From: Chiloscyllium plagiosum
Lineage: Eukaryota
Assembly (NCBI RefSeq): GCF_004010195.1
Contig: NC_057718.1
Span: 98,366,518 to 98,430,517, forward strand
Direction of reading: 5' to 3'
DNA length: 64,000 nt
Below are positions 4,050 through 58,802 of this stretch, one piece after another. The notes beneath the pieces were generated by a model. That model saw nothing but the letters and a program-made list of their open reading frames with translations. It was not told where the DNA came from and did not search any database. Position numbers and translations under genes: made by a program. Position 1 is the first letter of the stretch; every line of letters starts with the position of its first letter.

Positions 4050-4118
4050 GCAAAAGAGATGCGGCAGATGGTGAAGCTGGAAGCAGAGATGGCTCGCAGA
4101 CCAGCAACAGTGGTCTGA
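4050..4118 (+). CDS. PLCB4: PLCB4 (phospholipase C beta 4) terminal coding exon, frame ending ...ATVV
   Basis: Acceptor gttttctgtccccag, then AKEMRQMVKLEAEMARRPATVV*. This matches the recalled human PLCB4 C-terminus AKEMQQMVKLEAEMDRRPATVV. Synteny with LAMP5 and PAK5 agrees. Confidence 0.93.
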   Translation, partial: AKEMRQMVKLEAEMARRPATVV

Positions 4119-16480: not shown

Positions 16481-16724
16481 ATTGCACAGGTGTGTACTAA
16501 CATCTGTGCAAAAGGTGAATTATAAGAAGCAAATAGACTAACAATTTTCTGTTGTTATTTCTGGTGCAGTCAGGATTCTGGGAGCAGGGACTTCATTTTA
16601 GTTTCATTATAAAAGCATGAAAAAACTAATATTATTTCTGAATAAAAGTATACTGTTCACCGGAATGATAATCCATGGGCTGAGGTTAATGGCCTGGGTA
16701 CATGGGTTTAAAACCCAGAAGACC

Positions 16725-21622: not shown

Positions 21623-21935
21623 NNNNNNNNNNNNNNNNNNNNNNNNNNNNNNNNNNNNNNNNNNNNNNNNNNNNNNNNNNNNNNNNNNNNNNNNNNNNNN
21701 NNNNNNNNNNNNNNNNNNNNNNNNNNNNNNNNNNNNNNNNNNNNNNNNNNNNNNNNNNNNNNNNNNNNNNNNNNNNNNNNNNNNNNNNNNNNNNNNNNNN
21801 NNNNNNNNNNNNNNNNNNNNNNNNNNNNNNNNNNNNNNNNNNNNNNNNNNNNNNNNNNNNNNNNNNNNNNNNNNNNNNNNNNNNNNNNNNNNNNNNNNNN
21901 NNNNNNNNNNNNNNNNNNNNNNNNNNNNNNNNNNN
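21623..21935. other. Assembly gap within a purine-rich (GA/G) low-complexity tract (~21510-21970)
   Basis: Run of N flanked on both sides by GGA/GA-rich sequence. Confidence 1.
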
Positions 21936-21970
21936 GAGGGGGTGGGGAGAGGGACGGAAGATGGGAGGGG

Positions 21971-22049
21971 GATTGGGGGTATAAATGAGCAGCCTCCTGT
22001 CTCTGTGTCAGGGAGCTCAGTCTGGGTGGTATTGGCCAATCCTGTCGCC
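21971..22049 (+). promoter_or_regulatory. Candidate core promoter/5'UTR of the ANKRD63-like gene
   Basis: TATAAA at 21980-21985, inverted CCAAT (gattgg) at 21971, palindromic ATTGGCCAAT at 22031-22040, strong Kozak gtcgccATGG at 22050. Confidence 0.5.
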
Positions 22050-23645
22050 ATGGAGGCAGCCAGAGAGGAGCAGGGGGGCTGTGCCCTGCTGAATGCCATC
22101 TCCAAGGGGCAGGTACACTTGGCTCGCTTCTTGCTGGAGGCGGTGGACGGGAGTCTACTGGAGACCCGGGACCAGGAGGCTCGGACCCCGCTCATGTACT
22201 CGGTGTTACTGCCGGCTCCCGCCGCCCGGGCTCGCTTCATGCGGCTGCTGCTGGAGCGGGGAGCCCGGGTGGATAGCAGCGAGCGGACGGGCCGCACGGC
22301 CCTCAGCCTGGCCTGTGAACTCGGCCTGGTGGACGCGGTGAAGCTGCTGGTGCAGAGCAGCGCTGACCCGGAGCTGGCTGACCATCGCGGGAACACTCCG
22401 CTGATGTACGCTGCCGCCTCCGGCCACAGGGAGGTGATCACCTTCCTCCTCCGGGCCTTCAAACGCCTGGGGCTCGACATCGAGCGGCCCAACCAGGCGG
22501 GACTCTCCGCCGGACAAGTGGCCAGGCTCCTGGGCCATCGCGACTGTGCCCTAGCGCTGGAGGCAGCGGCCAGGACAGGGCGGGAGAGAGGCCATCTACC
22601 CCCTGACCAGCCCGCTGGTCACTCCATTGGTCAGTCTCTTGGTCAGTCCCCTGGTCACTCCCATAGTCATTCCCCTGGTGACCCCCTTGGTCACTCCCCT
22701 GACCATTACGTTGGTCACTCCCCTGGTCATTACCTTGGTCACTCCACTGGTCACTCCTCAGGTCACTCCTCTGGTCATTTCCCTGGTCACTCCATTCTTC
22801 ACTCCTCGGGTCATCCCCTTGGTGACTCTCTTGATCATCTCCTTGCTTACTCTGGTGACTCTCTTAGTCAGTGCCTTGGGCCCTCCTCTGGTCATTCCCT
22901 CAGTCAGTCCCCTGGTCACTCCAGGACTCCCTTCCCCTCAGGCATGGACAAAACAGCTCCTTTCAGCAGTGGCCGGGATGCCATGGTCTCCATCGATGAG
23001 GAACAGGATCAGGATGAAGATGAGGACCCGGCGAGGGAACACCTCTTGTCCCAGTCCTCCCGGTCTCGGCTCTGCTCCCTCAGCCTCCAGCATGGCAGCG
23101 ACCCCTGCACCAGCCTCCTGCCTCCTCTCAGCAGCTTCTCGGAGATCTGCACCCTCAGAACAACGATCCCTTACTCCCCACGGCCGGTCAAGAATGAAAC
23201 CACCACCCAGAGGCAGTGGGCAGCGGTGTGGACCAAGATCACCCCAGGAGGGTCAGCTTCCACTGAGAGGGGCTCAGGACCTTCCCAGGGCAGGGCCTCC
23301 AGGGGCCTGACCAGTTACTTCCAGAAGAGGTGCAGCCTCCCCACCAGCACCCTGTGTCCCTGTCCCCCAGAGAAACAGCCAGCCTTCGGCAAGGGCAAGG
23401 ATGTGCCCAGTACCCGCTCTGGCACCTTCACCGCCCTGGGCAGCAGACTCTTGAGACGCTTCACCTTCCCCAATTTCAAACAGTGCAGCGGGCACCGGGG
23501 CAGTGCCACCTTGGAGGCTGCCCACAGGATGCCCCGATCAGAAACTTTCCCCATCAGAAAGGATCACCCGCAGATCTCCCACAAGCCCAGCATCGACAGC
23601 ATCAGTGGAGTCCAGTGTGAGTTCCCAATCTTAAACAAATCCTAA
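22050..23645 (+). CDS. Intronless ankyrin-repeat protein, ANKRD63 family (531 aa); probably a paralog rather than the ortholog
   Basis: N-terminal ankyrin repeats (GQVHLARFLLEAVD, RTPLM, GRTALSLACELG, DPELADHRGNTPLMYAA, FLLRAFKRLGLDIERPNQAGLSA) align by eye to recalled ANKRD63 (GKVHLARFVLDALD, GRTALSLACERG, FLVRSFRRLGLRLDRTNRAGLTA). Single exon, CpG-rich, ends TAA at 23643-23645. Confidence 0.9.
   Translation: MEAAREEQGGCALLNAISKGQVHLARFLLEAVDGSLLETRDQEARTPLMYSVLLPAPAARARFMRLLLERGARVDSSERTGRTALSLACELGLVDAVKLLVQSSADPELADHRGNTPLMYAAASGHREVITFLLRAFKRLGLDIERPNQAGLSAGQVARLLGHRDCALALEAAARTGRERGHLPPDQPAGHSIGQSLGQSPGHSHSHSPGDPLGHSPDHYVGHSPGHYLGHSTGHSSGHSSGHFPGHSILHSSGHPLGDSLDHLLAYSGDSLSQCLGPSSGHSLSQSPGHSRTPFPSGMDKTAPFSSGRDAMVSIDEEQDQDEDEDPAREHLLSQSSRSRLCSLSLQHGSDPCTSLLPPLSSFSEICTLRTTIPYSPRPVKNETTTQRQWAAVWTKITPGGSASTERGSGPSQGRASRGLTSYFQKRCSLPTSTLCPCPPEKQPAFGKGKDVPSTRSGTFTALGSRLLRRFTFPNFKQCSGHRGSATLEAAHRMPRSETFPIRKDHPQISHKPSIDSISGVQCEFPILNKS
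22617..22922 (+). repeat. In-frame 12-bp tandem repeat (ggtcactcccct-like, about 25 degenerate units) encoding GHSx
   Basis: Seen in the DNA and in the translation GHSIGQSLGQSPGHSHSHSPGDPLGHSPDHYVGHSPGHYLGHSTGHSSGHSSGHFPGHS... Confidence 0.9.
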
Positions 23646-24992
23646 GTTCGGTGGCTGAAACACAGGAGAAGAAATTGCCCCGCAGTGTCCAGGGATGTTG
23701 CTGGTGAACCCTGGGAAATACCCCACGCGGAGAATGGGGTCTGCGTGGGATGTTCTTGGGAGGGTCAGTGCAGCCTCAAGGGGCCGAATGGCTTGCTCCT
23801 ACACTGTGGAGATTCTGTAACGCTGAGGGAGAACAGACATCCCGGGAGATTGTGAGCTCAACCGCGGAGGAAGAGGGCGGAACAGAATTCCTCTGGGCGT
23901 TAGATCGAGAGAAACGCTTAGCTTTTATGTTCTCCCGGTGTGCCAAGGGGAGTGCAACAGCCAGGGACTATCTGAGCACTGGGTCTTACTATAGCAAAGA
24001 CTCCCACGTGTTTACCCTTTAACCAGATTTAAGCTGTAGTTGCATCGCTGTTTATTGGGGCTGTTGGAATCTTATGACCCAGAAGAAGACCGTTCAAGCC
24101 AACGTGCCTGGCCCGAAGCTCCTGGGCAGAGCTTTCCAATCTCTCCCACCCCCAGAGCGCCGGAGTTTATTTTATATACTTTTCTGTATTTGTCCGACTC
24201 CTTCAACTCAGCAAACTTTCCGCCTTCGATCGTGACGCGTGTATCCATTGGAATAACTGTGTTGTCCACGGAGAGACTTGGTGCAGACGTGGGCCAGGAG
24301 TTAAAACTGGTTGCATGGTGTTGTGCCTCAGCACAGAGTCCTCAGACTGGCCTTAAAGCGGGACCAAGGAGCGTACCGCAATGCCGGCGTTCATAGCGAC
24401 ACTGTGCCTTTTCCTCAGCACTCGGTAACGCTTTACATCTTGTGTCGTTGCAACTTTCTCTCCGCTTGTACGAACGGTCTGAATGTCAATTAAATTGCTC
24501 GCGAGATTTCCCTCATGTTAACCTTATAACGGGTGGGATACAGCTATTGATGGGGTAAAGGTAACGCTGAGATGAAGCCAATGATGAGATCCTGTGCTGC
24601 CTTTACTCCGAAAGCTTGTACTTTCAAATAAACCTGTTGGACTATAACCTGGTGTCGTGTGCTTTTTTTTTTAATTTGAGAAAGTGAGGACTGCAGATGC
24701 TGGAGAGTCAGAGTGGGAAAGTGTGGTGCTGGAAAAGCACAGCGGGTCAGGCAGCGTCAGAGGAAGCAGGAGAATCGATGTTTAGGCCATGCACCCCACA
24801 TTCCTGACGAAGGGCTTATGCCCGAATGTCCGTTCTCCTGCTCCTCGGACCTGCTGTGCTTTTCCAGCGCCACCCCTTTCCGACTTTGATTTTTAACTTC
24901 GTCCACCCCAGTCCAACGCCGGCACCTCCACATCACGGTCTTTACCTTAAGATCACTCGTAATGTGATATCGATTTTGAGACGTTTTAATAA

Positions 24993-28869: not shown

Positions 28870-28936
28870 ATGGAAACAAGCAAGAGGCACCATCCTCATC
28901 TCAGCCCAGCACTGCATCTGCTCGCCTTCATCCTCA
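28870..28936 (+). CDS. LAMP5: LAMP5 exon 1 (start of signal peptide)
   Basis: ATG at 28870 gives METSKRHHPHLSPALHLLAFIL plus 1 nt, then donor gtaagt. Phase 1 matches exon 2. Confidence 0.8.
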
Positions 28937-29874
28937 GTAAGTACAGTCTCTAGAGGCATGCTGCATTGGAGGGAGAGTGGGGTCCGGGAGGGGGGTGATA
29001 GTGGGGGGCTGCAGATCTCAACATTACACCCTCCCCCCCCGCCCCCCCCAGCCCCAAAGCCAATGTGTGGAGAATAATCTCTACACCCTCACCCACCCCG
29101 ATCGAATCTCTTGGAAAAGGTTATGTTGGAATATCTTCCGAAAGCTGCCTAACGAAGCGTTTTCCGCAATTTTGCACGTTAACCCCTTGTGTACCTGACA
29201 GCTGTTTATTTTTTCTTCTAATGTCAGGAATCACATTAAACAAGCTGCTGTAAATGTTTCGCAGGTGAATCCAATAAGAAGGAGCGGGACGTTAGAGGGA
29301 TGCTCTGTTCCGAAAATTCACTGATTTTTTTTTCCCCTTCCCTCAATTTTCATTGATTCGGACAAAGTGCTGCATTCCTCAAACAACCTCCTCCCGTCCT
29401 CGGAGCGTTCGGAATTCGTGGTTAGAGAGACAGTGAATTGTTTTTATTTTAATTTTATTTTTATTTAAGAAAATGACCAAACAGAGAAACAAATGACTGG
29501 GGTGTTCGGGCAAATATTTGAAATAAGTTCTTCCGACCCTGGAGCTGAGTTCACGGGATTGAACTGTTAAGACTAGCCGGGACATTTAAATACACCATTC
29601 CCCGGTTCCATTTCTACTGCAAACCCAACCTGTTCCCTGTTTTGAGTTAATCTTGTGTTAATCTCCCTTTGCAACTATTCCAGGTGCATTTTGTAACATG
29701 GTATTGAGGAGGGCGATAGTAACTGTTACCTCTTCTGCGACTGAGTTCATTTTAATTTATTTTCACATCACGGATTTGCCTGTAAATGTTGAGATAGAGA
29801 GAAAACCATCGAGCCATTTTTTTTTTAGCAAAAGATTACACTTTTGAGATGTGAGCCATATTGTCACTTTGCAG

Positions 29875-30047
29875 ATGTTCTTCCTGGGGTCTGTGCGGAA
29901 CAGGAGACGGAGAACCTCTCAGGGCTTTCCACTGATCCTTACAAAGACATTTTTGTGGTTCGGGAGAACGGAACAACGTGTCTGATGGCAGAATTTGCAG
30001 CAAAATTTAACATCGCCTACGACGCAAGGGCTAGTAACTATGTAGAT
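29875..30047 (+). CDS. LAMP5: LAMP5 exon 2
   Basis: Acceptor ctttgcag, donor gtaaga, 173 nt. [51 protein letters not shown] closely resembles the LAMP5 N-terminus. Confidence 0.95.
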
Positions 30048-30234
30048 GTAAGACAACGTTTACACATAGCTCCCTCCTTGAGATTAACACGCGAAAAAAA
30101 AACCCTTCAACTTTTGCGGTCAAAACCAAATTGTTTTAAAATCTGTTGTATCTCTAACTGATTTAGTTCACCTTTTGCAACGAATTACTCGGCGCACACA
30201 CACGCCCACAACTTTTTGATCTTTTTGGCCCTAG

Positions 30235-30366
30235 CTCATTACAGAACAAGCTGACATCTCGATTCCACGTGGAGCAGGCGTGAGGGGAAAATGCGGAAAT
30301 AACGAATCTGAGCTGCAGATTTCTTGGCTGGACGACATCTACAGTTTTAAGCTCTTTTTTGTGAAG
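30235..30366 (+). CDS. LAMP5: LAMP5 exon 3
   Basis: Acceptor ccctag, donor gtaaac, 132 nt: [44 protein letters not shown]. Confidence 0.95.
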
Positions 30367-31165
30367 GTAAACTCAACCTCCCCCCACCCCCTCCGGCGCG
30401 CTGGGAGGGATTAAAAAATCGAATATCTAAAACAACAAAAAAAAATTGCCTGAGACGCTTAGTGGGTCTCCTCTGTCTCTGTAAGCAGCAAAGTTGTATC
30501 TGAAGCTGGGGAGAGATATCCAATGTGAAGTTTGTCCACACGAAGAGAGAAAAAGCAGAGAATCTGTGTGTGTGTGAGAGAGGGAAAGAGACAGTGTTAT
30601 TGTTTAAGGGTCCGTAACCTTTCATCAAAAATGGGAGGTGAATTAGTTTTGACCGAGAGACAAGGACAAAAGTAGAGTTTGCATAAATGCTACCCCTTCC
30701 AGACTTCACGATTCTGATGAAGAATCGTGTAACCTCGGAAACTTTAGCTTGCTTGTCTCTCTCCATGGACACTGCCTGTGATCTCCAGCATTTTTTATTT
30801 GCAGTTCTGACGGGACAGACTGGGTGACAGAAAAGATTTTAGAGTGATGCTGGAAAAGCACAGCAGGTCAGGCAGCATCCGAGGAGCAGGAGAATCGACG
30901 TTTCGGGCAAAGACCCTTCACCAGGAATCCTGGGTGACAGAAAAGTTATGCCTCCCACCCCATTCGAGCGCCAAAAGCAAACAGAGTTGGGAGCAAACGA
31001 AAGATGTACCGAGTTGCTGCAGACTGGCATTAGGAAACCAAGGTCCAGAATCAAATACAAACAGGACGAAAACAGAAATTGCTGGAGAAACCCAGCAGAG
31101 ATAAAACAGAGTTAACGTTTCGAGTCCAGTGAGCCCTCCTTGGTTCTTAAAGATGCTGCTCGAGG

Positions 31166-31452
31166 TGCTGAAAACGAGAAAAAAAACAAAAACAGAAATT
31201 GTTGGAAAAGCTCAGCAGGTCTGGCAGCGTCTGTGGAGAGAAATCAAGAGTTAAAGTTTGCGTTCTGAGGAAGGGTCACTGGACCCGAAACGTTAACTCC
31301 TGATTTCAGTGCGGAGAGAAATCAGGAGTTAACGTTTCGGGTCCAGTGACCCTTCCTCAGAACGCAAACTTTAACTCTTGATTTCTCTCCACAGACGCTG
31401 CCAGACCTGCTGAGCTTTTCCAACAATTTCTGCTTTTGTTTCTGCTGAAAAC
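31166..31452. mobile_element. Fold-back Penelope-terminus element: perfect 115-bp inverted repeat with a 10-bp flanking direct repeat
   Basis: 31193-31307 is the exact reverse complement of 31318-31432 (spacer agtgcggaga). tgctgaaaac occurs at 31166-31175 and 31443-31452. Confidence 0.9.
31262..31297 (+). ncRNA. Minimal type I hammerhead ribozyme motif (mirror copy on minus at 31328-31363)
   Basis: GUU-CUGAGGA-A-GGGUC(ACUG)GACCC-GAA-ACGU-U-AAC: CUGANGA and GAAA core, 5-bp stem II, palindromic ACGU stem III, GUU/AAC stem I. Confidence 0.6.
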
Positions 31453-32010
31453 AATTTCTGTTCTTTGGTTTATTATGTTTGTTTGTTTGAGATTTCCCGC
31501 TTCCTCAGTTTGTTTTCATTTTACTGCAATGGGAAACAAATGGAGTGTTGTGTTTGTAGTGGAATGAGGAATGGGTGAGGAATGCGACATAGTTCACTGC
31601 CTGAAATTGTTGGACTCGGTATTAACTCTGCTTGGTCTAGGGATGGTCTCCTGTTCCCAGTTCTGATGAGAAGTCGCAGATTTTGAAACGTTAACCACCC
31701 GCTCCCCGACCCCACACAGTCGCTGCCAAACGTGCGGAAATATTTCCAGCATGTTCCTCTCCAGTAACGGTGGCATTCTGTATATCTGAGGTTGGCCAAT
31801 CGCTGTTCTCTCTCTCTCTCTTCGCCATTTCAAACATCAATAAGGGAGACCCAAGTGTTAAATACCCTTGAAAATACGCCAGTCTCCAAGTGGGAAACCA
31901 GTTTGAGGTCAAGTTGTTCGTGTTGGGTTCTGTGGAATAGGCGGCGTCTTATAAGAATGTCATGTCTTTGGTTACAGTCTGATGATGGATATTGCTGAAC
32001 TTTTCAACAG

Positions 32011-32116
32011 GAAATCCGCAACGTTTCGACGAGGCAAGACAGTTACTGGAAGATCAGCAAGATGCAGTTCGTTTACGATTCGTCTGATACCGCTCACTTT
32101 AAGGACGCGGCCAATG
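32011..32116 (+). CDS. LAMP5: LAMP5 exon 4
   Basis: Acceptor ttttcaacag, donor gtgagt, 106 nt: EIRNVSTRQDSYWKISKMQFVYDSSDTAHFKDAAN. Confidence 0.93.
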
Positions 32117-32720
32117 GTGAGTTCTCCAGTGAGAATCCCGAACGGACTCGGCGCTACACCAATGCAAATCTGGCCCGAATCATTTTTCCTCCCCCTGAGG
32201 TCACGCCTTCAGATGCACGGTCTCGGCGAATCAAGCGAGACGATTTGGTTACACGTAAAATGTTCTGGTTTTGTGTTTGTGATCTCAGCTGGATCCCCGT
32301 TCTGCGTTTCCTAATACCCTACCCCCAATGAAGTTAACCAGCCTCACCATGAAATCATTCTGGAAATCATTCATGGAAATCTATATAACCCGAAATTTTT
32401 GGAAAGGGATCAAGGTTGTGACATTAATGCCGCCTTTTTCAGTTTGAAAATCTACGTTTAAGGGCGTTCGTTCTTTTTTTTAAATTTATTCGTTCTCGCC
32501 CGTAGGCTGGGCGCATATGTAATGCTCATCTCTAACCGCCCTGCAGGAGGCGGTGGCGAGCAGCTTTCTTCAACCCTTGCAGTTCGAGGGGGATTGATAG
32601 GTGTGTACGGCCAGGGAGAAACGAATAGTTAGACTGAAGTCACACTGACACAGTGCACGGAGAGGGCTGGAGAAGCTCGACAGGAAATGAAGGGAGAGAG
32701 AGAGAGAGAGGGATAACTTG

Positions 32721-33006
32721 GGGTGGCACGGTGGCTCACAGCACCAGGAACCCGGGTACGATACTAGCCTCAGGTGTCTGTGTAAAGTTTGCACATTCTC
32801 CCAGTGTCTGCATGGGTTTCCTCCCACCGTCCATAGATGTTCAAGTTAGGGGGAATTGACCGTTCTAAATTGCCCGCAGTATTAGGTGCATTAGTCAGGG
32901 GTATATGTAGGGGAATGGGTCTGAGCGGATTGCTCTTCGGAGGGTCGGTATGGGCTTGTTGGGCCGAAGGGCCTGTTTCGATACTGAAAGGAATCTAACC
33001 TAATCT
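32721..33006 (+). mobile_element. HE1-type V-SINE in LAMP5 intron 4
   Basis: gggtggcacggtggctca head, V-domain, aatcta tail. Confidence 0.85.
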
Positions 33007-33309
33007 GATTTTGAGTCCTGCGATGAATTCTGTTTCTGCTCCACGGACCTGCTGAGTTTCTCCAGCAAGTTCTAGATTTGTTTCAGATTTCCGGAGTCTG
33101 TTTGTTTTAATGCGTCGGTGCATCTCAAGTATTGAGATTTTTCTTCGTCCTGATGTACCCTGCTGGTGTTGCCCACACTCACGGCCGAGCTGCGGTTTGA
33201 TCTTGGATTGTACACCTCAGGTTGCATGCTCTCTGTCAGTTCTTTTGCAGGAGCTCTGTTGCAGTTTTATTTTTGGTTTGGTGTCTGAGCAAGGACTTTC
33301 TCTCTGCAG

Positions 33310-33498
33310 CCGGGAAGCACACCGCCAGTTCTCGCCGTCTGTCCCTCTTTGTGACCCCTCTGGGCAAGTCTTACAAGTGTGAGGCGCAGGAAACCATCTC
33401 TGTCATCTCCAGTGACCAGCAGAAGGTGGTGGCTATCCTGCTCTCTCAGATCCACATCCAACCGTTCGGTCTCAAGCGAGACTTCATCTTTAGCGAAG
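33310..33498 (+). CDS. LAMP5: LAMP5 exon 5
   Basis: Acceptor tctctgcag, donor gtagag, 189 nt: [63 protein letters not shown]. Confidence 0.95.
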
Positions 33499-33908
33499 GT
33501 AGAGAGGCGGGGGGGGGGGGGGGGCACGGTATTTTATTGTTTCTCTACATGGGGTGGGAGGGGTGGCAGTTACGGGGATGGCTGGGAGGTCACACTAATC
33601 TAGAGTCTGGGAGATCACAACAAGCCAGGCAGCATCAGGAGGTGGAGAAGTCGACGTTTCGGCTGTAACCCTTCTTCAAGTGCACAACAGCAAGATAAAC
33701 ATTGATTTGAAATTAGAATTCAAGAAATTGAAGGGGGAAACAATTACATACTTTCTGTCCCACGTTTTGTTATTGTATGTAGAATGACCCGAATACTATA
33801 CCAGTCTCAAGCCTCACCGTTCGACTGTTTTTTCTTGAACTGATTTTTTTTTGAAAGAATCTATCTTTGTAGTATTCATGCTTTCATCCCCTCGTCTCTC
33901 CTCTGCAG

Positions 33909-34087
33909 CTTCTAAGTGTGTGGTAGATCAACAGGAACAGCTGGAAGAGACTCTGCCCCTTATACTGGGGCTGACCCTGGGACTCCTCATCGTGGTAATC
34001 CTGTCTGTCTATCACATCCACCACAAGCTGACGGCCCCCAGTCAAGTGCAGATCCCCAGGGACAGGTCGGAGTACAAACACATGTAA
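33909..34087 (+). CDS. LAMP5: LAMP5 exon 6 (TM helix and YKHM sorting motif)
   Basis: Acceptor ctctgcag. [58 protein letters not shown]. The six exons sum to 846 nt (281 aa plus stop). AATAAA at 34558. Confidence 0.96.
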
Positions 34088-35599
34088 AGAGAGGCGATAT
34101 AGAGCGGTACATATGTTCTGTGGAGAGCCACTAGGAGACTTGTATGTGACGCTTTCAGAACCTCTACAGCACAAATGTAAATAGCAACGCCCTGAATTCT
34201 CGCTGTATATATTTAAGCACGCTTCTTAATTTAAACAGTGAAATAGTATGTGGAATGCTCTAAAAAAATGGAGTCCCGCCACTGCCAATGCACAACCGAC
34301 ACATTTAAAGCGATTAAACTGATTGCAAAGATTACGGAATTAGTGTAAACGCCAACTTGTATAGTATATTGGAAACCTGCATCGCTGCAATTATGTCGAG
34401 AAGGTTCAGCTCGATTTGGTTCCTTCAAACGCTTTTTTTTTTGCTTAAAATGTACACGGGGCAAGGAGTTGGTGCATGAATTGGAAAAAAAAAGAACAAA
34501 CGCGAATTTGTACAAATTCTCAGCCGAACTGTTTCGGGCTCAGTCCTGAACGCAAGAAATAAATCAGTCACTTTTAAAAGGAAATCTTACGGCGTCCCTG
34601 TGGCTTGGTTCGAGTCTTGTTTTACTTTCAGGATGCACTCGGAGCAATATTGAGGTCAGGTCAAAGAGAAGCAGTCACAATTTTTCATGCCCGCTCCCCC
34701 CTCCGTTTGAAAACCCATTGTCCTTTTCCGTATTCTGTTTGGACATTTGATAAACCGAACGCAGGAAGTTTCAGCGATTTTTAGCAGAAACTCTCTCGGC
34801 AGGTCCCTGAAATCCAGTCGCTGTCAGGCAAAACGATTACCTCCCGAATGTGGGAGGAATACAAAGGGGCACTGCATTATTTCTGATTTTTTTAAGGGGG
34901 TGGTGGAGGCTGGTACGATTACAACATTTAATAGGGCATCTGGATGGGGAGATGAGTAGGAAGGGTTGAGAGGAATATGTGCCAAATGCTGGCAAATGGG
35001 AATACACTGATATAGAATATCTGGTCGGCATGTTGAGTTGGATTGAAGGGTCTTGGTGACAGTATCTGACCAATTTGGGCTCATTTACTCCCCTCAGTTT
35101 ACAATAGGGAGATGGAATTGTGGAACATGTTTTCCCCGCTTTCCCACCTCCATCACTGAGCTGCTCTGGAGGAAGTGATTAGCAGTAGAGCGAGTAAGGC
35201 TCGCTTCACAATACACGTGCATTTTCTTTTTGTTTGAACGGATGCTTTAAAACAGTCATTGGGCCGTTCCACTCGTATACTTTTCCGATGTTCTGTATTC
35301 CAGTTATGGAGAGGCTAATTCCTCTGGCAAAAAGACTGAGCTAAATCCACAAGAGTTGTGTACTCAGATTTAGTTGCTAAATCCTTTGCATATTTGAAGC
35401 ACAGCAGGCCGGGTAAAATATGCTGCTTCGATAGTTAATTACACTCAAGGAAGGTTAGTGACTGGGAATTATCAATCAGTTTGTTGCCAGTTTTGTTCTG
35501 TTTCCTCTCCCCAAGGGCAAACAGTCCATGTCACTGAAAGTTACTTTAATAAACCCGTTTGGACATATTATAACACACCTCAGGAGCAGGTGGGATTCG

Positions 35600-41619: not shown

Positions 41620-41775
<156 letters not shown>

Positions 41776-44293
41776 CTAAAACAGACCAGGAAAAAAAAAA
41801 GTGTCAAATGTAGAATTTTCTCAGTTACTTTGACTCAAACACATTTAACTTGCTCAGATTTAAAATTAATTTAATTTTTAATATTTACTTTTATTCATAA
41901 ATGCCACAATTTTATTATTTCATTGTACAAAGATTAGAAATAAAAAAACTATCCTCTTTCATCTAATACATCCATGTACAAATTTTATTACAGTTGGCTA
42001 TGCCATAACATATTTCTTCAATGTGAATTGGCTTTAATGCGATTGAAGAATTTACATAGTTTTTTGAAGAATACAAACTTTCCTTACCTATAACACGATT
42101 TCGGCCCCCTTCGTTTAAATGACGCGATTATTGCGTGATTTTCTTAACGTGAGATCACACATGCATGGTAGAATAATATATTGGGGCATCGTGTGGCATA
42201 ATTCGGGACTAACACGTTATATCAGAACCGTCTGTATTTATATACCAGTGATGCACACTTGTAGTGTTAGGGAATCAACATATTTCACAGGATCATTGAA
42301 TTGTTACAGAATAGGAGACAGTTCTCTAAATAATGATTCACCTCGCCATTCCCCTATCTCTACTAGTTAACACTGAACATTGTCCATTTTCATAGCAGAG
42401 TCAAATTCTCTTTTGAATGCCTTGATTGAACTAGGCAGTGAATTCTGGAACTTAGCCATTTATGATGTGATAAAGGTTTAATTTCCCCATATAACTTTTG
42501 TTTCTTTTCCAACTTCATATCTGAGCCCAAGTGAGAATATTTTCTCCCTACTTACTCTACTCAGACCCCTTAGGACTTTGAATACCTCTATCAAATCTCC
42601 TCTTAGCCTTCTCGTCAGGGAAGCAGTCCTAACATTGATTTTGAAAAAAAGATATTCGCAATATCGAAGAGATAGATGCCTTCAAGTGTGTAACTCGTAA
42701 CAAAATATATGTACTTTTATTGTTGAATATTAATGTTAAAATGCCAGAGGCATTATTCATAACAGGTTGACAGGTATATTGATTTATAAGGGCATTATGC
42801 CACACCATGTGCCAATGTAGTATTCTGACATGCATGTGCATTAGGGTCTGTTTTGGTGCTCTCCTTTAATGCCAGTGCAATAATTGTGGTCTTCTCAGCT
42901 TAAGGTGCTGACTAGTATTAGCAGGCATGTGGATGATTCAAAGCATGATTAACTTCCCTTTAATTTTTTTAAAAATCTAATGCGATATGGAAATTTGTAA
43001 TGACTGATTATGACCTGTACACTTGCCTGTTAGCTGAATTTGTTTTAAAAAAGATAATACCCAAAACATCTGTAGAGTTCTTATAGTAAATGAAAACTTT
43101 TCAATGACAGGAGTGATATTCCATGAAATGCAAACTGCTTTATGATAGCAAGGGCAAGTATTTCACTTCAGTGAATCATCATGCAAATTGAATTTCCAAC
43201 AACCTGGATCACAAGAGAAATAGCTTTTTAAAAACACAATACAAATTTATTATAGCAGGGTTAGCGAGGGGAAATATTGGCTGGAATGAGGGGAAGCGTG
43301 TTAATCCCCTGCTAATTTGCCTTCAGATAATAATCTTTCTTTTCTGCACTTTTCTCTCTCATGGATTCTCTCTGGTTTGCTGTATGTCTGCAGTATTTAT
43401 CTTCTCTGTATACGTGAGTCTCTTGTTTGATTAGCATTGTCTACCGATGGCGAGAGAAGCAAACAAAAAACATCCAGCCTATGGAAATAGTGCTCTTATC
43501 AAAACACACCTTTGTAAAATATTTAAAAGCTCAGATTTTGTTTCAGAGTCTGTGGGTTACAATCCACAGCCTTTCCTTCTTCAGGTGTTAAACCTGCATT
43601 GCAGATTTTTGGCAGGGACTATAATCGATGCATACTAAAACTGTCCAACACAGTGAAAATACTCAGACTGCCACACACTGGAAATTAGACATAGAATTGC
43701 TTGCTGAATTCTAGGTAAGGTAAATCTCTTCATCTCCCTTTGATGGTTTTGACAAAGCCATTAACTTCACATTCTCAGCCTTTCCGAGAGGCTGAGATAT
43801 CTAATGATAAATAATTAAACATAGAAAATGAATTCGGATATACAAGTTTAATTATCTTCTTGTAAGTTTTGTACATTTCTATTGACCATATCTGCAGAAA
43901 TAAGTGCTGAGGCTAGTAGAGAATGCAAGCTGGCAATCAACATTTTTTTGTTCTTTCATGGGATGCGGGCATTCAGTGGCTCAGGAAACATTTACTCCCC
44001 ATCCCTCAGTGCTCTTGAGTGGTGGCAAGTTCCCATTTTACAACTGCTGCAGTCTATTTGGTGTTGGTACTTTACATGGTCCTAATACTAAGGGAGTTCC
44101 AGGTTTTTGAACCAGTAACAGTAAAGGACAGAGATGTAGGTCCACATCACAATGGTGTGTAGATTACAGGAGAACTTGCAGGGGGGGTAGTGTCCCCATA
44201 CATCAGCTACTCTTGTCCTTCAAGGTGGGAGAGGTGATAGATGATTGGAGGTTGGTGAGTTGCTGTAGTGCATCTTGTAGGTAGCACACATTA

Positions 44294-44580
44294 TTAGATT
44301 AGGTTAGATTACTTACAGTGTGGAAACAGGCCCTTCGGCCCAACAAGTCCACACCGACCCGCCAAAGCGCAACCCACCCATACCCCTTACCTAACACTAC
44401 GGGCAATTTCGCACGGCCAATTCACCTGACCTGCACATCTTTGGACTGTGGGAGGAAACCGGAGCACCCGGAGGAAACCCACGTAGACACGGGGAGAATG
44501 TGCAAACTCCACACAGTCGCCTGAGGTGGAATTGAACCCAGGTCTCTGGCGCTGTGAGACAGCAGTGCTAACCACTGTCA
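44294..44580 (-). mobile_element. HE1-type V-SINE inserted in an older LINE fragment
   Basis: Reverse complement of the same head, V-domain and tail. Confidence 0.85.
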
Positions 44581-46567
44581 TGGTGCATTGATGGTGGAGG
44601 GAATGAACGTTTAATGTAGTGGACTAGGTGACAAGCAGCCCTGGATAGTGTAGAATTACTTCAGTGCTGTTGAAGCCACCTCTATTCAGGTAAGCAAGGA
44701 GTATTCCATCACACACCTGACTTGTGTTTTGTCAATAGCAGACAGGTTTTGGGGAATCTGGAGGTGAGTTACTCACCAGAATTCCTACATTCTGACCTGT
44801 TCCTATAGTTTTTATTTGATTGATTCTACTTTATTTCTTTCATTTGATCATTCCTAATTGGAGAGTTGTCTGATATATGTGGCTATTAAGACCATGTTAA
44901 CCTGCATAAAAATCTAAAAATAAAGTTAAATATTTGCATTTTTGCCTAGGGACAAGACTGACTTCTGGTTAAAGCAGATGATAAGCAGATGATGCAAATT
45001 TAAGTACAGAAATCAATTCCACTTCTCAGGTTTCCTGATTAGTGTTACACATTAAGGCTGGGATTTAAATGTTATCATCAATATTAAATCATCCTTCAAC
45101 AAGGAGGTGAAGTATTCACCATTCATAATTCCAATTAAAATTTCTTCTCAGTGTCTCAGTCATGCTACTATTGATAAACTAAATGAAGATCATAATGGAT
45201 GCCCAAATATGAATTATAATTGAAGCATCTTTAGGGTCTCAATCAAAAATAAATATTGATTTTTAATAAAAACATGCAGTGTCATGAAATTTTGACTTTA
45301 AGAAACAGCATCATTTGATGGCGAAGTGGTATTATAGACTTTAGAGATTTATATAGATTATATATAAAGAATCAGTTTTCTTGTCTAATTACAAACAAAA
45401 ATAGAAATTTCTGGAGAAACTCAGCACATCTGAAAGATCTATAGAGAGAAAACAGAATTAATGTTTCATGATGTGTGATCTTTCTTCAGAACTTCTGATA
45501 ATCCTCAACTCCACTTTACTAGTATTTTTCTTCAGACACGTTACGGATAGCATTCCTTAGCAATCATAGGAACAGAAGTAGATCATTTGCCCCTTCAAGA
45601 CAGTTTTGCGATTCAAATAAATCATGGTGGATCTGTACCTTCACTCTATCTGTCTATTTTACTTCCATACTACCCAATTCAATTGGCTAATACAAATTTA
45701 CTAACCTTGGTATTAAAACTTCCAGCTGATTCCCCAGCACCAACATCTTTTAGGTAGGCGATATTTATATGTCTTAGAGACATACAGCACGGAAAGAGAC
45801 CCTTTGGTCCAACCAGTGCATTCTGAACATAATCCCAAACTAAACTAGTCCCACCTGCCTGCCCCTGCCCCACATCCCTCCAAACCTTTCCTATTCATGT
45901 ACCTATCCAAATTCTACCCATATCCACCAACTCCTCAGGAAGTTCAAATATATTTTTGATATCACTCTGATTGATTAAACTCTATTTTTAATGTTTTGCT
46001 TTCTTGTCTGGATATCCCCATCAGCAGTAATAATTACTCTTCCTATCTAGACCACCAATGTGTTTGATCATCATAAATCTCAATTAGCTCATCACTCAAT
46101 CTTATCTATTCAAAGGAATACAAATATACAATTGATCTAATACTTAACCCTTTAGCCCCTACATCATTCTGGTGAATCTGTTGCTGCATTCCCTTAATGT
46201 CTTCCCAAAGTGCAGTGCCCAGATCTGAATGTAAAACGTGTTGTATTTTGCACCATGGTGTCATAGAGGTGTACAGCATGGAAACAAACTCTTCAGTCTG
46301 ACCATGCCAACCAGATATCAAGTTAATCTAGTCCCATTTACCAGCAGTTGCCCCATATCCCTTTAAACCCTTCCTATTCATGTACCGATCCAGATGCCTT
46401 TTAAATGTTGTAATTGTACCAGGTTCCACCACTTCCTCTGGCAGCTCATTCCATATACACACCGCCCTCTGAAAAAGTTGCCTCTTAGGTCTCTTTAATA
46501 TCTTTCCCCTGTCACCATTAACCTATGAACAGAGGATTGCGGTTTTCAGTGGCAAAGCAACAGCAAA

Positions 46568-46905
46568 ATCATAGAATCATAGAATCCCTGCAGTTTGGAA
46601 ACAGGCCCTTCGGCCCAACAAGTCCTCATCGACCCTCTGAAGTGTAACCCATTCAGACCCATTCCCCTACCCTATCACCTCGGCCTAATGCACCTAACCT
46701 ACACATCCCTGAACACTATGGGCATTTTAGCATGGCCAATTCATTTAACCTGCACATCTTTGGATTGGGGGGGGGAACCAGAGCACACACAGGAAACCCA
46801 CGCAGACACGGAGAGAATGTACAAACTCCACACAGACGGTTGCTTAAGGCTGAAATCGAACCCGGGTCCTGAGAGGCTGCAGTGCTAATCACTGAGCCAC
46901 CATGC
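46568..46905 (-). mobile_element. HE1-type V-SINE, near full length
   Basis: (atagaatc)n tail and reverse-complement tRNA-like head ending at about 46905. Confidence 0.85.
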
Positions 46906-48249
46906 CACCCCCACCTTGGTCAGTTCATGGGCTGGCTTTATTTTTCCTCTAAGGTTACCTGCTGAGACCAACGCTCAAAATATATGGAAGCAGCGAACAT
47001 ACGTGGGCATAAAAAGGCATTATTTCTGAAGTAACAATCAGATAAAGGCGAAGGAGAAAGAACAAAAAAAGGCCAGCACAACCTATTGTGACCACAGAAT
47101 TCAGGAAATAATTGGTTAGAGCCCCAACTCTGGTGACTGGCCCATTTCCCTCCTCTGAAAAGTTACATAAAGCCAGTCTGTGTTACGCCACGCCTCACTG
47201 GGATAGCATGTTTGAAAACAAGGCCTGTTCTTCTCAGAACCTCACAAAAGTTAAAAATTTTATCAATGGAAGCAAACATCCCCAATTTACCTATTGGATA
47301 GACCTAGGCTAACAAAACAAAAATCAGGTTCCTGTACCTAACAAAAAAATTTATTTCTTACAAATGTGTAAGTTATAAATACAAGTAAACAGATATGAAC
47401 GATCAACATATGGCTATACTAGTTAAGATTTAACTCCTTTTCATAATTCCTTCATCCACACACACACACACACGTATGAGATAGACACAGATAAACACAC
47501 AAAAAATTTTTTTTTTTAATGGGAGGAGTGAAAAAAAAACTGGTTCAATAACAATTCAATCGCACCAGTCCAGAGAGCTCACTGAGATGAGTCTTTTGGT
47601 TGCCAGCATTTTCTACTTTCAATCTATCATTTCCAGGTTGTTTCACTTCTTCACAGGAGGCACAGGGCAATTGGTACATTAACTGGGAGGAAATAACTGG
47701 CTTTCTACATACTACAGACTTTTACTGCAGTGAACATTGCTTTACACAACCTCTCTCCTCTGGAGATCTGAAAGCTTTGCAGTTCTCATTCACACAAACT
47801 GTTCAGCTACAAATCAGTGTTGTCATCAGGCTGATGATCTTTGGCATCCACAACTGGTCACAAGTCCATAAACTAATCAGCAAACTGTTGGCAGTCGAAT
47901 CTCACGTCGTACATGTGTGCCAGTGTTGAACAGTCTCCTCTTATACCTTTCCCTACTGCTTACAAAGTGACTATGTAAACACGACCCACAACGGGTTTCA
48001 GTAACTTTGCTTTTTAAAAAGTACACCAATCTGTTCCTCAATCTTTTGCTCTAATACAGCACTTTTTTCAATTTAGTTCACAATCAAAAACTGACTAAAA
48101 TAAAAAGATATGATTCTTTTTACAAGTAGAAGTCCTTGTTAACCTTTAAACTGCACCGTTAAAGCTGGCCTGGAATGCAAGTCAGTTTTGGACTCAATAT
48201 ACCTGCCTAAAATTCATTCTGATTAAAATCAGTTCTCACATGTTAGTTA

Positions 48250-48429
<180 letters not shown>

Positions 48430-48573
48430 TTAATGTCATCCATTAAATACATAACAATAATCTAATAAGTTGATCACTGCTGCCGAAGTATTGTAGCAAT
48501 AGTTTGGTTAGAATTAAAAAATTAATGAAATATTGTAAGTTATGCAATTAATGATATCATAATTCTGAAACTA

Positions 48574-48750
<177 letters not shown>

Positions 48751-49338
48751 CTAGAAAAAAGAAAGAATTCTGAAGTCAATTTCCTTTGCAAAACTCTGTT
48801 TACTAACACCCTTTTTTTTTTAGAAAAGTTGAATATGTTAAAACTTTAACTGTTTGGGTTAAAATGGGAGAGGCATTCTGTAGTTTTCTTTATTAAACAT
48901 ACTAACATTCTATTAATTATTGCTGAAAACAGAGGCGTATTGCTGAAGCATTTTTGTCTAGTTTTATCATTACAACTACAAGAGTACCAAATTTCAAACA
49001 ATTACACAATTCATATGCAGTTTCCTACTGACTGGTTGGCGAGTTGATGCTCATTGGTCCAGGATTGCCATGGAGAAAGCACCAGAGAACTATAGGTCTG
49101 CAAACTTCAGAATAATTCACAAGAGCATATTCCTCTGTTTGCAGAGAATGGCTCTCTGCATGAATGTATGTCACTTCTAGGATGTGTTAGTGAGCCTTGT
49201 TATATGTTGAACTTTTTGCTTATTAGTATTAGGTATTGGTGGACTCAAGCTTGTTCAGCCAGTGCTTTCCAATCATGGAATCATATCTATTAATCTCATT
49301 CTATGAATTACTAAGTTACCTTATTATGACATAGGCTA

Positions 49339-49542
<204 letters not shown>

Positions 49543-52449
49543 TTACTCCTAAACAGGAAGATTCCTTTAACTGATGATACAAATTAATATATTTAGCTGG
49601 TGATGCACAAAGTTAGATATTCCATTATCCCCCTGTGATTTCAAATTAAATAACACATTTCGATTTATGTTCCTTGTTGGAGGTTAACATAGGTCACCAT
49701 TATTATATTATTTCACCATTTTTGGCCAGTTTATCTCTTGAACGTATTAACAACGTAGCCGTGCAATATGGATTTTACAGAATCAGGGCAACAAGGCTGA
49801 CTTTGAGAGTTTCAGTTCTGAAGGGTCATCTTTTGGACCTGATTCATCAACTTTGCTTCTCTCTCTCCACAGATGCTGCCAGACCTGATGAACTTCCTCC
49901 AGCACTTTCTCCTTTGATTTCTGATCTCCAACATGTTCAGGACTTTGTTTTTAATTAAGAAAGAATAGCTGTTATGGATAGTGGAATTTGTACTTATTTT
50001 AACGATTGCTTGGCCAAAAGGCATCATCTTTGAGAAATTTACTCTTATTCCTCCAACTGAACTACACTAAATTTTTAATCTTCCTTTTCTTTCAAATTGA
50101 TTGATCGGCATTACATCCACAAACATTCAGTCCCTCCAAGACCAATGCTTAAAAGCAGTGTGTATCATCCACAAGATGCATCACAAAAATTCATCAATAA
50201 TCCTTCGACAGTACCTTCTAAACCCATGGCCATTACCAAGTAGAACAACAAGGGCAGCAGTTACATGGGAACACCACCACATGCAGGTTCCTCTCCAAGC
50301 CATTCACCACTGACTTGGAACTACATCACTGTTCCTTTAGTGTTGCTGAGTCAAATCTGGGAATTCTCTCCCTGAAGGCATTATGGGTCTATCCACAGCG
50401 CAGATTGTAGGGGCTCAAGGGTACCATTACCTTCTCAAAAGCAATTAGGAATGGACAATGAAAGTGGTCTAGCCACTGATGCCTCATTATGTTCCTGAAT
50501 GAACATAAAATAACTTTTTAGGATATTAAACATTTAAATTGTTCCATTTACACTGAAAGAACAAACACCACTTCAGTTCCCAAAAATAGGAGGAAAGCCT
50601 TGCAAAATTTGTAATATTTTGCTTAACAGTTTAGATTGCAGTGAACTCTGATTTATAGAGTCATAGAGATGTACAGCATGGAAACAGACCCGTCCATGCC
50701 GACCAGATATCCCAATCCAATCTAGTCCCACCTGCCAGCACCATATCCCTCCAAACCCTTCCTATTCATATACCCATCCAAATGCCTCTTAAATGTTGCA
50801 ATTGTTCCAGCCTCCACCACTTCCTCTGGCAGCTCATTCCATACATGTACCACCCTCTGCTTGAAAAAAGTTGCCCCTTAGGTCTCTTTTATATCTTTCC
50901 CCTCTCGCCCTAATCCTATGCCCTCTAGTTCTGGACTCGTCGACCGCCAGGGAAAAGACTTTGTCTATTTATCCTAGCCATGCCCCTCATAATTTTGTAA
51001 ACCTATAAGAAGTTTTCTGTAAAGGTAAATTCAATGATTATAAAAGCAACTGTTGTTACCCTGGCAGTAAAGTAAACTTTCTAAACAATTTGCAGCTTTG
51101 AAATTTGCTATCTTTTAGCTGATCAAGTCAAGTTAGACTGTTATGATTAACCAAGCTTCAGTGATTCAGACTAAGTGCCACAGCCCATGCTGAAACAATG
51201 CCAACATAGAAACTCAAATTTCCCCTAAGGCGTAAAGGTCACAAGCTCCTATGTTGCATGCCAGACACTGTACTGCATTTTTTGATAAGGAAAAGCTGAA
51301 CAGATCAATCTGACCCCATCCTACAATAAAGACATTGGGCCTACTCGTAGACATTAGCAACATTGATCCAAGAGAGTTTCGCTATTGGAGCTAATGTATT
51401 GGCAGCAGTGAGAACTTAACAGAGGTACATAAAATAAAAATGCTCAAAACTTAACAAACATTGCGTATTTTGGTATTTATATTTCACTATACAAAGAAAA
51501 CTAACAAATTATTAATACTATTGAAGAATACTTAGTTTTTCAGCTTCCAACCCTCAATCAAAAGTTTAATGCAGTTGATTATTTTTAATGAGATTATATC
51601 CAAACTAAACTTAATTATTGCATCATTGAATTCAAGATAACAGAAGGTAAAACATTAAAAAGTTAATGAAATAGAATTTTGATGGTTAATCTCCACATTT
51701 AAACAGGTCATTGCTATTCTCTGTAGGGTAGAATGCATAGACGAGAAAGAAATTCAGCTCATACAGCCTGACTACCACCCAGTGAGTTTCTACACTATTA
51801 AAAAATGATAATCTGGCATTCAGCTGACTTCAGTCTGCTTTAAAATCAGAGGAAACAGAACAACTCAACTCCTGCTAAGTATGGATGAAACTTTTAATGC
51901 ACAAATTATTTTAACCAGCTTTCAGATATCAGAAAAAGTGGATCTATAATGTGCAATTCAGTTAGCATAATATTTCTGCAGAACATAGGAGTCACATTTC
52001 ACAACTGGTTTGTGTGCTTTGCAATGTGAAAATGCTAATTTAGTAGCTTATGAATTTGAAGACAAAATAAATCTGCTGTGTTTCAAAAAATCATGTATGT
52101 TTCAATTTCTGTAGAAACTCCAAAACAAATTTTGAGGTGATGAACCATAGTTTTTCATAGGTTTATGAATCTAAACTATCGGCATCAATAATGTGAGGTA
52201 GTGATGTTTTATCATATACCATTCATGGAGAATTCTGGCTTTGGTAACTGAGGTTCTAATAATGTTACACAGATTTTGCTTAATTTTTATAGATGTACAT
52301 TAGCAAACCAAAGGCTGTATCTGATTTACTGAAGCTTCAGTTGAAGTTATTGCTCATAGGAATTTTGCATCTTTCACCCTAATATTTACTGAGCTGGGTT
52401 TTATATTTGGTTGGATGAGTTTTGCTTGGAGTTAGGCTGGCCACTTATA

Positions 52450-53120
52450 TCCATTGCAAACCCATCAATTCCCACAGTTACCTGGATTACACATCCTCAC
52501 ACCCCGTTTCTTGTAACGACTCCATCCTATTCTCCCAGTTTCTCCATCTCTGTTGCCTCTGTTCTGACGATGTCACTTCCACATCCAAAGGATCATAGGC
52601 CACAGTTCTCCAGTAAGATGCCATGACCAGGTTGCCTCTCCTCTCTCAGCATTTCGCAGGGACAATTTCTTCTGGGACATTCAGTCCATTCCTCCTCCAT
52701 TCCAAAAACGTCCCACATCCCATAGCACGAGAAGGTGTTACACCTCCCCATTTATCTCCTCGCTCCTCAATATCCAAGGCCCCTGACATACCTTCCAGGT
52801 TAAGCAGAGTTTAACTGCACTTCATTTAATCTAGTCTACTGTACTCGCTGTTCACAATGTGGTCTCCGCTACATTGGAGAGACAACTGCAGACTGGGTGA
52901 GTGCTTCACAGAACCCCAGCATTCTGTTAATAAAAAATGACTCTGAGTTTCTACTTGCCTGCCATTTCAACACACAGCCATATTCCCACACCAACATTTC
53001 TGGCGCAGACCTGCTGCAATGTTCCAGTGAGCCTTAAGGATAGCTGGAAGAACAGTATGGCATTTTCCGCTAGGGACCCTGTACCTCTAGGACCCAATAT
53101 AGAGTTTAATAACTTTAGGC
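52450..53120 (+). mobile_element. Penelope-like element ORF remnant (end of RT region plus GIY-YIG endonuclease)
   Basis: About 52795-52920 translates to FNCTSFNLVYCTRCSQCGLRYIGET, the PLE GIY-YIG signature (xVYxxxCxxC...YIGET). Frameshifted. Terminal-repeat-like sequence follows at 54340-54500. Confidence 0.8.
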
Positions 53121-53335
53121 CCTTGATTCCATCTTTCTATATTTTCTACCTACCCCCACAACCAGTCCTGTTATCCTGTGGGCTGCTTTCAGCACAATCA
53201 ACACAGTCTCATCCATTCTTAGACCTATCATCCCATGACATGGATTGCTATCAGCACAGCTGACATACTCTAACCTATTCTGGATTAGTGGTGCTGAAAG
53301 AGCACAGCAATTCAGGCAGCATCCAAGGAGCTTAA

Positions 53336-53371
53336 AATCGACGTTTCGGGCAAAAGCCCTTCATCAGGAAT
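53336..53371 (-). ncRNA. Minimal type I hammerhead ribozyme motif within fold-back element 53280-53490
   Basis: Minus strand reads AUUC-CUGAUGA-A-GGGC(UUUU)GCCC-GAA-ACGU-C-GAUU. Confidence 0.6.

Positions 53372-58643: not shown

Positions 58644-58802
<159 letters not shown>

Follow-up and report, generated by a model that had tools for sequence, protein, structure and literature searches.

Mammalian ANKRD63 is a single-exon gene. Human ANKRD63 falls within a schizophrenia-associated interval and lies together with PAK6 and PLCB2 in one interval of chromosome 15 (PMC5545733). Mouse Ankrd63 belongs to the sleep-need-index phosphoproteins identified in brains of Sik3 Sleepy and of sleep-deprived animals, and overexpressing it lowered non–rapid eye movement sleep (10.1101/2021.05.05.442860); the supplement of PMC12088394 lists it with a sumlog2 Slp/WT of 2.55, giving no residue. 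Threonine 332 (T332) of the human protein ranks seventh among the top 20 predicted 14-3-3 sites of the human phosphoproteome, and in Table 2 of that source ANKRD63 carries no mark as a 2R ohnologue, that is, a copy from the two rounds of genome duplication (PMC4495292). Here we analyze a relative of this gene in a 64,000-nucleotide stretch of the genome of the shark Chiloscyllium plagiosum (contig NC_057718.1, positions 98,366,518 to 98,430,517, forward strand; hereafter the window). Our analyses indicate that it very probably represents a second ANKRD63-family clade, likely derived from an early vertebrate genome doubling, and encodes a predicted phosphorylation-gated adaptor.

The shark gene and the two clades of ANKRD63-like proteins

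The gene is an unspliced ATG-to-TAA frame of 531 amino acids (aa) at positions 22050-23645 of the plus strand, with no internal stop codon. None of 300 shuffles of positions 21936-24700 contained a frame as long (mean 161, maximum 321), which bears out the intact, intronless ANKRD63-like open reading frame (ORF) described in an initial annotation of the window; the TATA and Kozak signals named there can likewise be read in the sequence, as TATAAA at 21980 and the start context GTCGCCATGG. The protein is already present in NCBI and UniRef, and its closest named relatives are those of C. punctatum and Hemiscyllium ocellatum, with 171 of 175 ankyrin-domain residues identical. The GC content at third codon positions (GC3) of the carpet-shark ankyrin part is 0.83. 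Pfam detects ankyrin matches in the protein (best E 4.6e-20), and an AlphaFold model from a 14-sequence alignment is confident to about residue 180: predicted local distance difference test (pLDDT) scores are mostly >90 for residues 11 to 170 and <50 for residues 182 to 531, the tail being predicted to be disordered. The best Foldseek matches of the domain are DARPin and natural ankyrin folds, with root mean square deviations of ∼2 Å. The domain is closest to ANKRD63: family members scored 118 to 357 bits, and the background did not exceed 123 bits. In the ESM Atlas the tail found no usable match, and the Heptranchias protein led to ankyrin/ANKRD63 clusters only.

Relatives were collected in full-length searches that listed the best 120 of 1094 matches (7999 candidates, down to 245 bits) and the best 120 of 814 matches (8000 candidates, down to 291 bits), and in a search with a caecilian ankyrin domain, limited to proteins of 140 to 447 aa, that listed the best 120 of 523 matches from 4135 candidates and reached unrelated ankyrin proteins. 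An alignment-based search of representatives was dominated by long ankyrin-repeat proteins and supplied the first proteins of the ANKRD63 clade (P0289 and P0276). The full-length matches listed cover sharks and, among ray-finned fishes, sturgeon, gar, bowfin and many teleosts, together with coelacanth, lungfish, frogs, caecilians and salamanders; an invertebrate relative is not among the matches listed in any of the searches. Two profiles sort 261 proteins of <900 aa, the 25 profile-training rows included, into 193 of clade A and 59 of clade B, with 9 below threshold. Clade A, to which the window type belongs, spans sharks, ray-finned fishes, coelacanth, lungfish and amphibians. Clade B is true ANKRD63, including the human protein (NP_001177408.1), which shares a cluster with the B-type protein P0340.

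The split between the clades received a Shimodaira–Hasegawa-like approximate likelihood ratio test (SH-aLRT) support of 99 in a quick mixture-model tree of 47 rows. Support was 100/100 with 27 rows over 184 ankyrin columns, with 25 full-length rows over 351 columns, and in a 15-row mixture-model tree, where the window protein and that of Heptranchias group together at 84/79. Both types are present in six species (Latimeria, Acipenser sinensis, Pimephales, Xenopus tropicalis, Microcaecilia and Geotrypetes), and A and B lie on contigs that differ in length in X. tropicalis (164.0 versus 147.2 Mb) and Microcaecilia (535.5 versus 228.1 Mb). The window gene does not group with human ANKRD63 in the trees, and clade A is neither lineage-restricted nor nested within B. 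The phylogeny thus identifies the gene as an ancient sister of ANKRD63 rather than the translocated copy or recent retrocopy that the initial annotation had weighed against its own proposal.

By tree and motifs, clade A orthologues are found in Heptranchias (XP_067844505.1), Latimeria (XP_006007115.1), X. tropicalis (XP_002931794.1) and Microcaecilia (XP_030050535.1). Members of the clade are annotated under a variety of names: ANKRD63, ANKRD63-like, uncharacterized, mucin-1, inversin-A-like, ANKRD34B/35/36B-like and LAMP5 fusions. The carpet-shark proteins differ from other clade A members in their faster evolution and in an added Gly-His-Ser repeat, which is limited to three carpet-shark proteins and occurs neither in Heptranchias nor in bony vertebrates. 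Motif matches for this 12-base repeat number 15, 21 and 23 in the three carpet sharks, the insert being longer in the other two, and 0 in Heptranchias; the repeat probably explains the mucin-1 annotation of one relative.

Neighboring genes and the origin of the two clades

The gene order PLCB4(+), ANKRD63-like(+), LAMP5(+), PAK5(−) given in the initial annotation agrees with exon homology (Table 1), the isoform label of the phospholipase C beta (PLC-beta) gene being presumptive: we take the matched structure, Protein Data Bank (PDB) entry 6ird_B, to be PLC-beta4, although its file names no isoform. LAMP5 was located with the LAMP5 portions of the fused proteins P0091 and P0040 as tblastn queries, and the last exon of the minus-strand kinase scores 85 bits with PAK5 versus 63 with PAK4 and 55 with PAK6. 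The window gene is therefore flanked by PLCB4-type, LAMP5 and PAK5 genes, not by PLCB2 and PAK6. In Alosa (XP_048106534.1) and Pimephales (XP_039507297.1), the clade A gene is annotated within a model that runs on into LAMP5, which indicates that LAMP5 is the same-strand neighbor of clade A in these teleosts too. On the other side, model P0378 carries a PLC-beta C-terminal domain ahead of a B-type ankyrin start (PDB 1jad, which we take to be PLC-beta2, E 2.4e-11; PLC-beta3, 0.022), so that clade B likewise follows a PLC-beta gene on the same strand. Judged by their sequences, the teleost ankyrin–LAMP5 models read as annotation artifacts. A genuine read-through fusion protein was considered and rejected: a cytosolic domain would precede LAMP5, which bears a signal peptide, and the shark ankyrin ORF ends in a stop codon of its own.

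Thus, ANKRD63 resembles the window gene in lying downstream of a PLC-beta gene on the same strand and beside a group II PAK, and differs in its linkage to PAK6 instead of LAMP5 and PAK5. Paralogous PLC-beta and group II PAK neighbors are thus present at both loci, on evidence that is indirect for genomes beyond the window. At human 15q15, ANKRD63 is presumably co-oriented with PLCB and convergent to PAK, and the human PLCB4–LAMP5 interval presumably contains no ankyrin gene. PAK4, PAK5 and PAK6 have been termed ohnologues (PMC9444074). Because clade A is tied to LAMP5 and clade B to PLC-beta, and PAK5 and PAK6 are ohnologues, co-duplication of a PLCB–ankyrin–PAK block is the simplest reading of the synteny. 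We infer with considerable confidence that the clades originated by whole-genome duplication from the ancestral order PLCB–ankyrin–LAMP5–PAK; the PLCB–ankyrin–PAK block would have been copied in an early vertebrate genome doubling to give A and B. The gene is real and most likely an ohnologue, and retained ohnologues are a common class in cartilaginous fishes. The sister copy from genome duplication that was originally proposed is supported by the separate clade and the matching PLCB/PAK synteny; it is not a shark relic, being widespread in bony fishes and amphibians.

Four lines of evidence place the window protein in clade A. Its tail scores 142.8 bits on the A profile versus 70.3 on the B profile, both trained without sharks; of 278 proteins, that of Heptranchias is the best outside match to its middle segment (E 2.8e-13), and the ten best matches are all A; the mixture-model tree unites it with Heptranchias; and it is linked to LAMP5. 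Several observations weigh against this placement and against the dating of the split. The carpet-shark proteins sit on a long branch, and the window ankyrin domain is 58% identical to that of human ANKRD63 and 61% to the Heptranchias A domain. At 12 columns diagnostic for A or B, the window protein shows the A state in 5, the B state in 3 and another state in 4. Holding the protein with B costs 6.8 log units, and the approximately unbiased (AU) test does not reject it (p-AU 0.164). A full-length LG+G4 tree sets the window protein between A and B at 60/90, and in FastTree too it forms the basal branch of A, adjoining B. No chondrichthyan B protein is among the matches listed. The sole outgroup, lamprey P0381 (Petromyzon marinus XP_032803875), sits on a branch of length 3.7, too long to root or date the split or to assign it to the first (1R) or second (2R) round of duplication; and as the fused gene models are artifacts, the synteny drawn from them is indirect. 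The shark A proteins join bony A apart from B in trees that are unrooted, and a duplication before the shark–bony fish split leans partly on synteny. The lamprey protein is short, nearly equidistant from the two clade profiles (167 versus 177 bits) and without the tail motifs. The carpet-shark ankyrin domain (22050-22574) has ANKRD63-type residues G20, M49 and L87 at diagnostic columns, likely by convergence on a fast branch, although old gene conversion may have contributed them.

Against this background, three other histories were weighed. Relocation of ANKRD63 itself, or a recent retrocopy, would fit the lack of introns, the ankyrin-domain identity to human ANKRD63 and the name ANKRD63 borne by several A proteins in databases, but unless composition misleads the trees it is extremely unlikely given the 100/100 split, the two copies in six species and a family spanning sharks to amphibians; a single exon needs no poly(A) or target-site scar, since mammalian ANKRD63 is likewise single-exon. 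We consider it very unlikely that the shark gene is an unduplicated pro-orthologue of both bony clades, or a third lineage, with the duplication on the bony-fish stem. The window protein can indeed fall between A and B, and no shark B copy is among the matches listed; however, the mixture-model tree unites the window protein and that of Heptranchias inside A, their middle segments match, the A-only acidic motif is present, the LAMP5 linkage is common to teleost A, and a missing shark B is explained by searches that each show the best 120 matches. An ancient paralogue that arose before jawed vertebrates radiated, not by genome duplication but by local duplication of a segment or transposition of a single gene, is improbable. 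Such an origin would draw on the lack of an outgroup that dates the split, the absence of a third or fourth clade among the 261 proteins, and the differing PLC-beta neighbors, PLCB4-type here versus PLCB2 at the human locus. Against it, PLCB1 is presumably the 2R sister of PLCB2. PLCB1 adjoins PLCB4, and the two are listed alongside PAK5 within a single interval in cattle (PMC12652844). Each flanking family, furthermore, has members at both loci, and PAK5 and PAK6 are ohnologues (PMC9444074). Genome duplication thus remains our preferred origin.

The C-terminal tail and its possible regulation

Beyond the ankyrin domain, tail motifs were counted in 166 A proteins of at least 330 aa and in B proteins comprising 12 full-length fish-type and 35 tetrapod-type sequences, leaving out P0381, P0378, P0375, P0306 and P0307 (lamprey, fused, partial) and shorter rows (Table 1). 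The window tail contains three R/K-x-x-S/T-x-P sites, at S429, T472 and T499, spaced by 43 and 27 residues in the predicted disordered region. Site 2 is the sole tail site preserved in both clades, tetrapod ANKRD63 included, and its T472 corresponds to human T332 (NP_001177408.1/C9JTQ0). The strict pattern RR[FL]TxP occurs in 157/166 A proteins, all 12 full-length fish-type B proteins have the site, and Leu occupies position −5 in 155/158 A and 45/45 B. Fish ANKRD63 shares site 3 and the terminal motif with the window protein. Tetrapod ANKRD63, in contrast, has neither the acidic motif nor the full three-site tail, and the N terminus and middle region of the window protein differ from those of ANKRD63. 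As judged from sequence, the tail motifs are ancestral and common to fish ANKRD63, and tetrapod ANKRD63 is cut down to one site. The C-terminal motifs that were at first taken to set this copy apart are present, with three basophilic sites, and absent from tetrapod ANKRD63, but they are not copy-specific, because 12/12 fish-type B proteins share them. ANKRD63 measures 287 to 328 aa in amphibians (P0322, P0323 and P0347), ∼245 to 275 aa in squamates (P0351-P0372), where it stops shortly past site 2, and up to 570 aa in fishes.

The tail contains at least two conserved R/K-x-x-S/T-x-P sites in a disordered region, the sequence hallmark of 14-3-3 clients, and these are predicted sites. In the literature the SIK consensus is LxB(S/T)xSxxxL and that of PKA is BBxS/T, with SxP as a 14-3-3 motif (PMC8057676). 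Sites 1 and 2 conform to the PKA consensus, and sites 2 and 3 match part of the SIK/AMPK-family pattern. FAM122A/B, the CRTCs and class IIa HDACs are similar in having at least two basophilic S/T-x-P sites >15 residues apart in disordered sequence; they are not homologous to the window protein, and their 14-3-3 binding has been shown, whereas here it is predicted (PMC4495292, PMC8057676). The three-site tail, the kinase patterns and the mouse sleep-need phosphoprotein data together suggest that the protein is an ankyrin adaptor, probably of neurons, gated by kinases and 14-3-3; we give this mechanism about an even chance. The ankyrin domain would hold a partner protein, and kinases of the PKA or AMPK/SIK/CaMK type would phosphorylate S429, T472 and T499. 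A 14-3-3 dimer could then dock on a pair of phosphorylated sites and switch the location or partners of the adaptor, probably in neurons; tetrapod ANKRD63 would retain the middle site alone.

Some features of the tail argue against such gating. Three matches compare with 0.75 expected in shuffles (p 0.035), mildly above chance for a single sequence; site 2 is an incomplete match to the SIK consensus, with a Thr acceptor and Arg at −2; and Hemiscyllium has His for Arg at −2 of site 2. The tail might instead serve mainly as a degradation or trafficking signal, with 14-3-3 binding incidental: the SIDSIS-x-V-x-CEF motif and the acidic Ser motif would be read by CK1/CK2 and by an E3 or coat adaptor. 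The terminal motif, which is not a 14-3-3 motif, is as conserved in A as the basophilic sites (159/166), but the element that tetrapod ANKRD63 keeps is only the basophilic T-x-P site (45/47 B; Leu at −5 in 45/45). We therefore regard a degradation or trafficking role as possible but doubtful.

Further features of the locus, apparent loss in mammals and squamates, and significance

Sequence reads were compared from 4 of 20 listed runs. Run X5, which is of unrecorded type and comprises contigs totaling 95 million letters, contains a 2578-base contig that spans 22057-24633 without a joint; its depth is 34, and it departs from the window in 7 letters and 1 gap. Positions 21936-22028 are uncovered. 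The contig ends are suggestive of a transcript running from just below the TATA box to the AATAAA at 24627, the likely poly(A) signal of the gene, the 3′ end being also a repeat boundary. Run X1, from a related organism and RNA only by a guess, gave four short pieces at depths of 2 to 6. The single-cell run X9 gave 1057 reads, nearly all on the repeat tail or from other loci at 90 to 95% likeness, and the single-cell run X10 gave 0 reads. Poly(A) tails at 24644-24647 were not counted, as the reads are 90 to 95% alike and probably come from other repeat copies. The interspersed repeat (24596-24667) has a second copy at 18465-18526 that is 87% alike; many RNA reads from other copies end in poly(A) 15 to 20 bases past AATAAA, and the repeat may be a source of poly(A) sites across this genome.

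An 803-aa ORF spanning the assembly gap was rejected as an artifact, because homologues begin within a few residues of the Met of the 531-aa frame. GC content is 0.45 to 0.61 across the ankyrin gene and LAMP5 (22001-36000) versus 0.30 to 0.45 elsewhere, and the PAK5 exons have a GC3 of ∼0.3. Decayed reverse-transcriptase fragments of the long interspersed nuclear element (LINE) type lie between PLCB4 and the ankyrin gene (16702-17655 and 20050-20650). A GC-rich 27-base minisatellite of ∼1 kb (27459-28489) stands directly 5′ of LAMP5 and holds a 210-aa repetitive minus-strand frame (27662-28294) that is probably non-coding. On cattle chromosome 13 (2.23 Mb), the Ensembl gene ENSBTAG00000054174, possibly a remnant or a long non-coding RNA, is listed beside PLCB4 (PMC12652844).

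Table 1. Positions of features in the window, with their basis or their occurrence among clade A and clade B proteins
Feature	Positions	Strand	Basis or occurrence
Clade A sister of ANKRD63, single-exon ORF	22050..23645	+	reading frame, trees, one unspliced contig
Ankyrin-repeat domain, aa 1-180, ∼five helix-pair repeats	22050..22589	+	Pfam, AlphaFold, Foldseek
Gly-His-Ser-rich insert, in-frame 12-base tandem repeat, ∼26 copies	22615..22922	+	Tandem Repeats Finder (TRF), period 12, 25.9 copies
Acidic Ser motif MVSIDEE, aa 312-318	22983..23003	+	137/166 A, 0/47 B
Site 1, KRCSLP, S429, basophilic S-x-P	23325..23342	+	162/166 A, 5/12 fish-type B
Site 2, LLRRFTFPNF, T472	23448..23477	+	looser pattern in 158/166 A, 45/47 B; aligns with human ANKRD63 T332
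Site 3, RSETFP, T499, basophilic T-x-P	23535..23552	+	159/166 A, 12/12 fish-type B, 0/35 tetrapod-type B
Terminal conserved motif SIDSISGVQCEF	23589..23624	+	159/166 A, 12/12 fish-type B, 0/35 tetrapod-type B
Likely 3′ untranslated region, AATAAA at 24627 within interspersed-repeat tail	23646..24633	+	end of X5 contig at 24633
TATA box candidate, TATAAA, 70 bases 5′ of ATG	21980..21985	+	sequence; putative function
Assembly gap (N), 313 bases, within purine-rich stretch just 5′ of promoter	21623..21935	.	sequence
PLCB4-type phospholipase C beta, last coding exon (upstream neighbor)	4050..4118	+	C terminus of PDB 6ird_B, 20/22 residues, E 1.2e-05
LAMP5 (downstream neighbor)	28870..34088	+	exons 29889-34088 by tblastn; first exon at 28870 by reading
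PAK5 kinase-domain exons, convergent with LAMP5 and the ankyrin gene	41620..58760 (upper bound approximate, gene runs on)	−	score comparison

The distribution of the clades in amniotes is one-sided. In the length-limited search all 23 named amniote rows among the matches listed are B (15 mammals and 8 squamates), no named amniote is among the matches listed in the full-length clade A searches, and in a FastTree of the 166 A proteins every row without a species name falls inside teleost, frog or salamander groups. Clade A was thus probably lost in mammals and squamates. Against this stand the scope of the matches listed, in which birds, turtles and crocodilians are represented in neither clade, and the fact that an amniote A protein of >447 aa scoring <291 bits would escape the searches. 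The originally proposed loss in mammals accords with the lack of a mammalian A protein among the matches listed, and the apparent loss extends to squamates. Clade A in this respect resembles Pax10, reportedly a vertebrate ohnologue of a different gene family: the sister copy persists in fishes and amphibians but not in amniotes or mammals, and naming after the human paralogue conceals it. We found no description of a second ANKRD63 paralogue in the open-access literature, although ohnologue catalogues or bioRxiv supplements may list it.

These findings correct the orthology of the family, in that the fish, frog and shark genes called ANKRD63 are a mix of two paralogues, and a hidden sister could mask the effect of an ANKRD63 knockout in zebrafish or Xenopus models. 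They also single out human T332, the sole tail element preserved across both clades, for >400 million years. More tentatively, and at best as a speculation from the conserved motifs, the ancestral jawed vertebrate may have had two ANKRD63-family adaptors, each with a three-site SIK/PKA and 14-3-3 cassette; tetrapod ANKRD63 would then have been reduced, amniotes would have lost the sister, and T332 would be the surviving switch. If so, fishes and amphibians would keep a neuronal, sleep-linked module of which mammals have a stump, and T332 would be the switch of a sleep-need, schizophrenia-locus protein.

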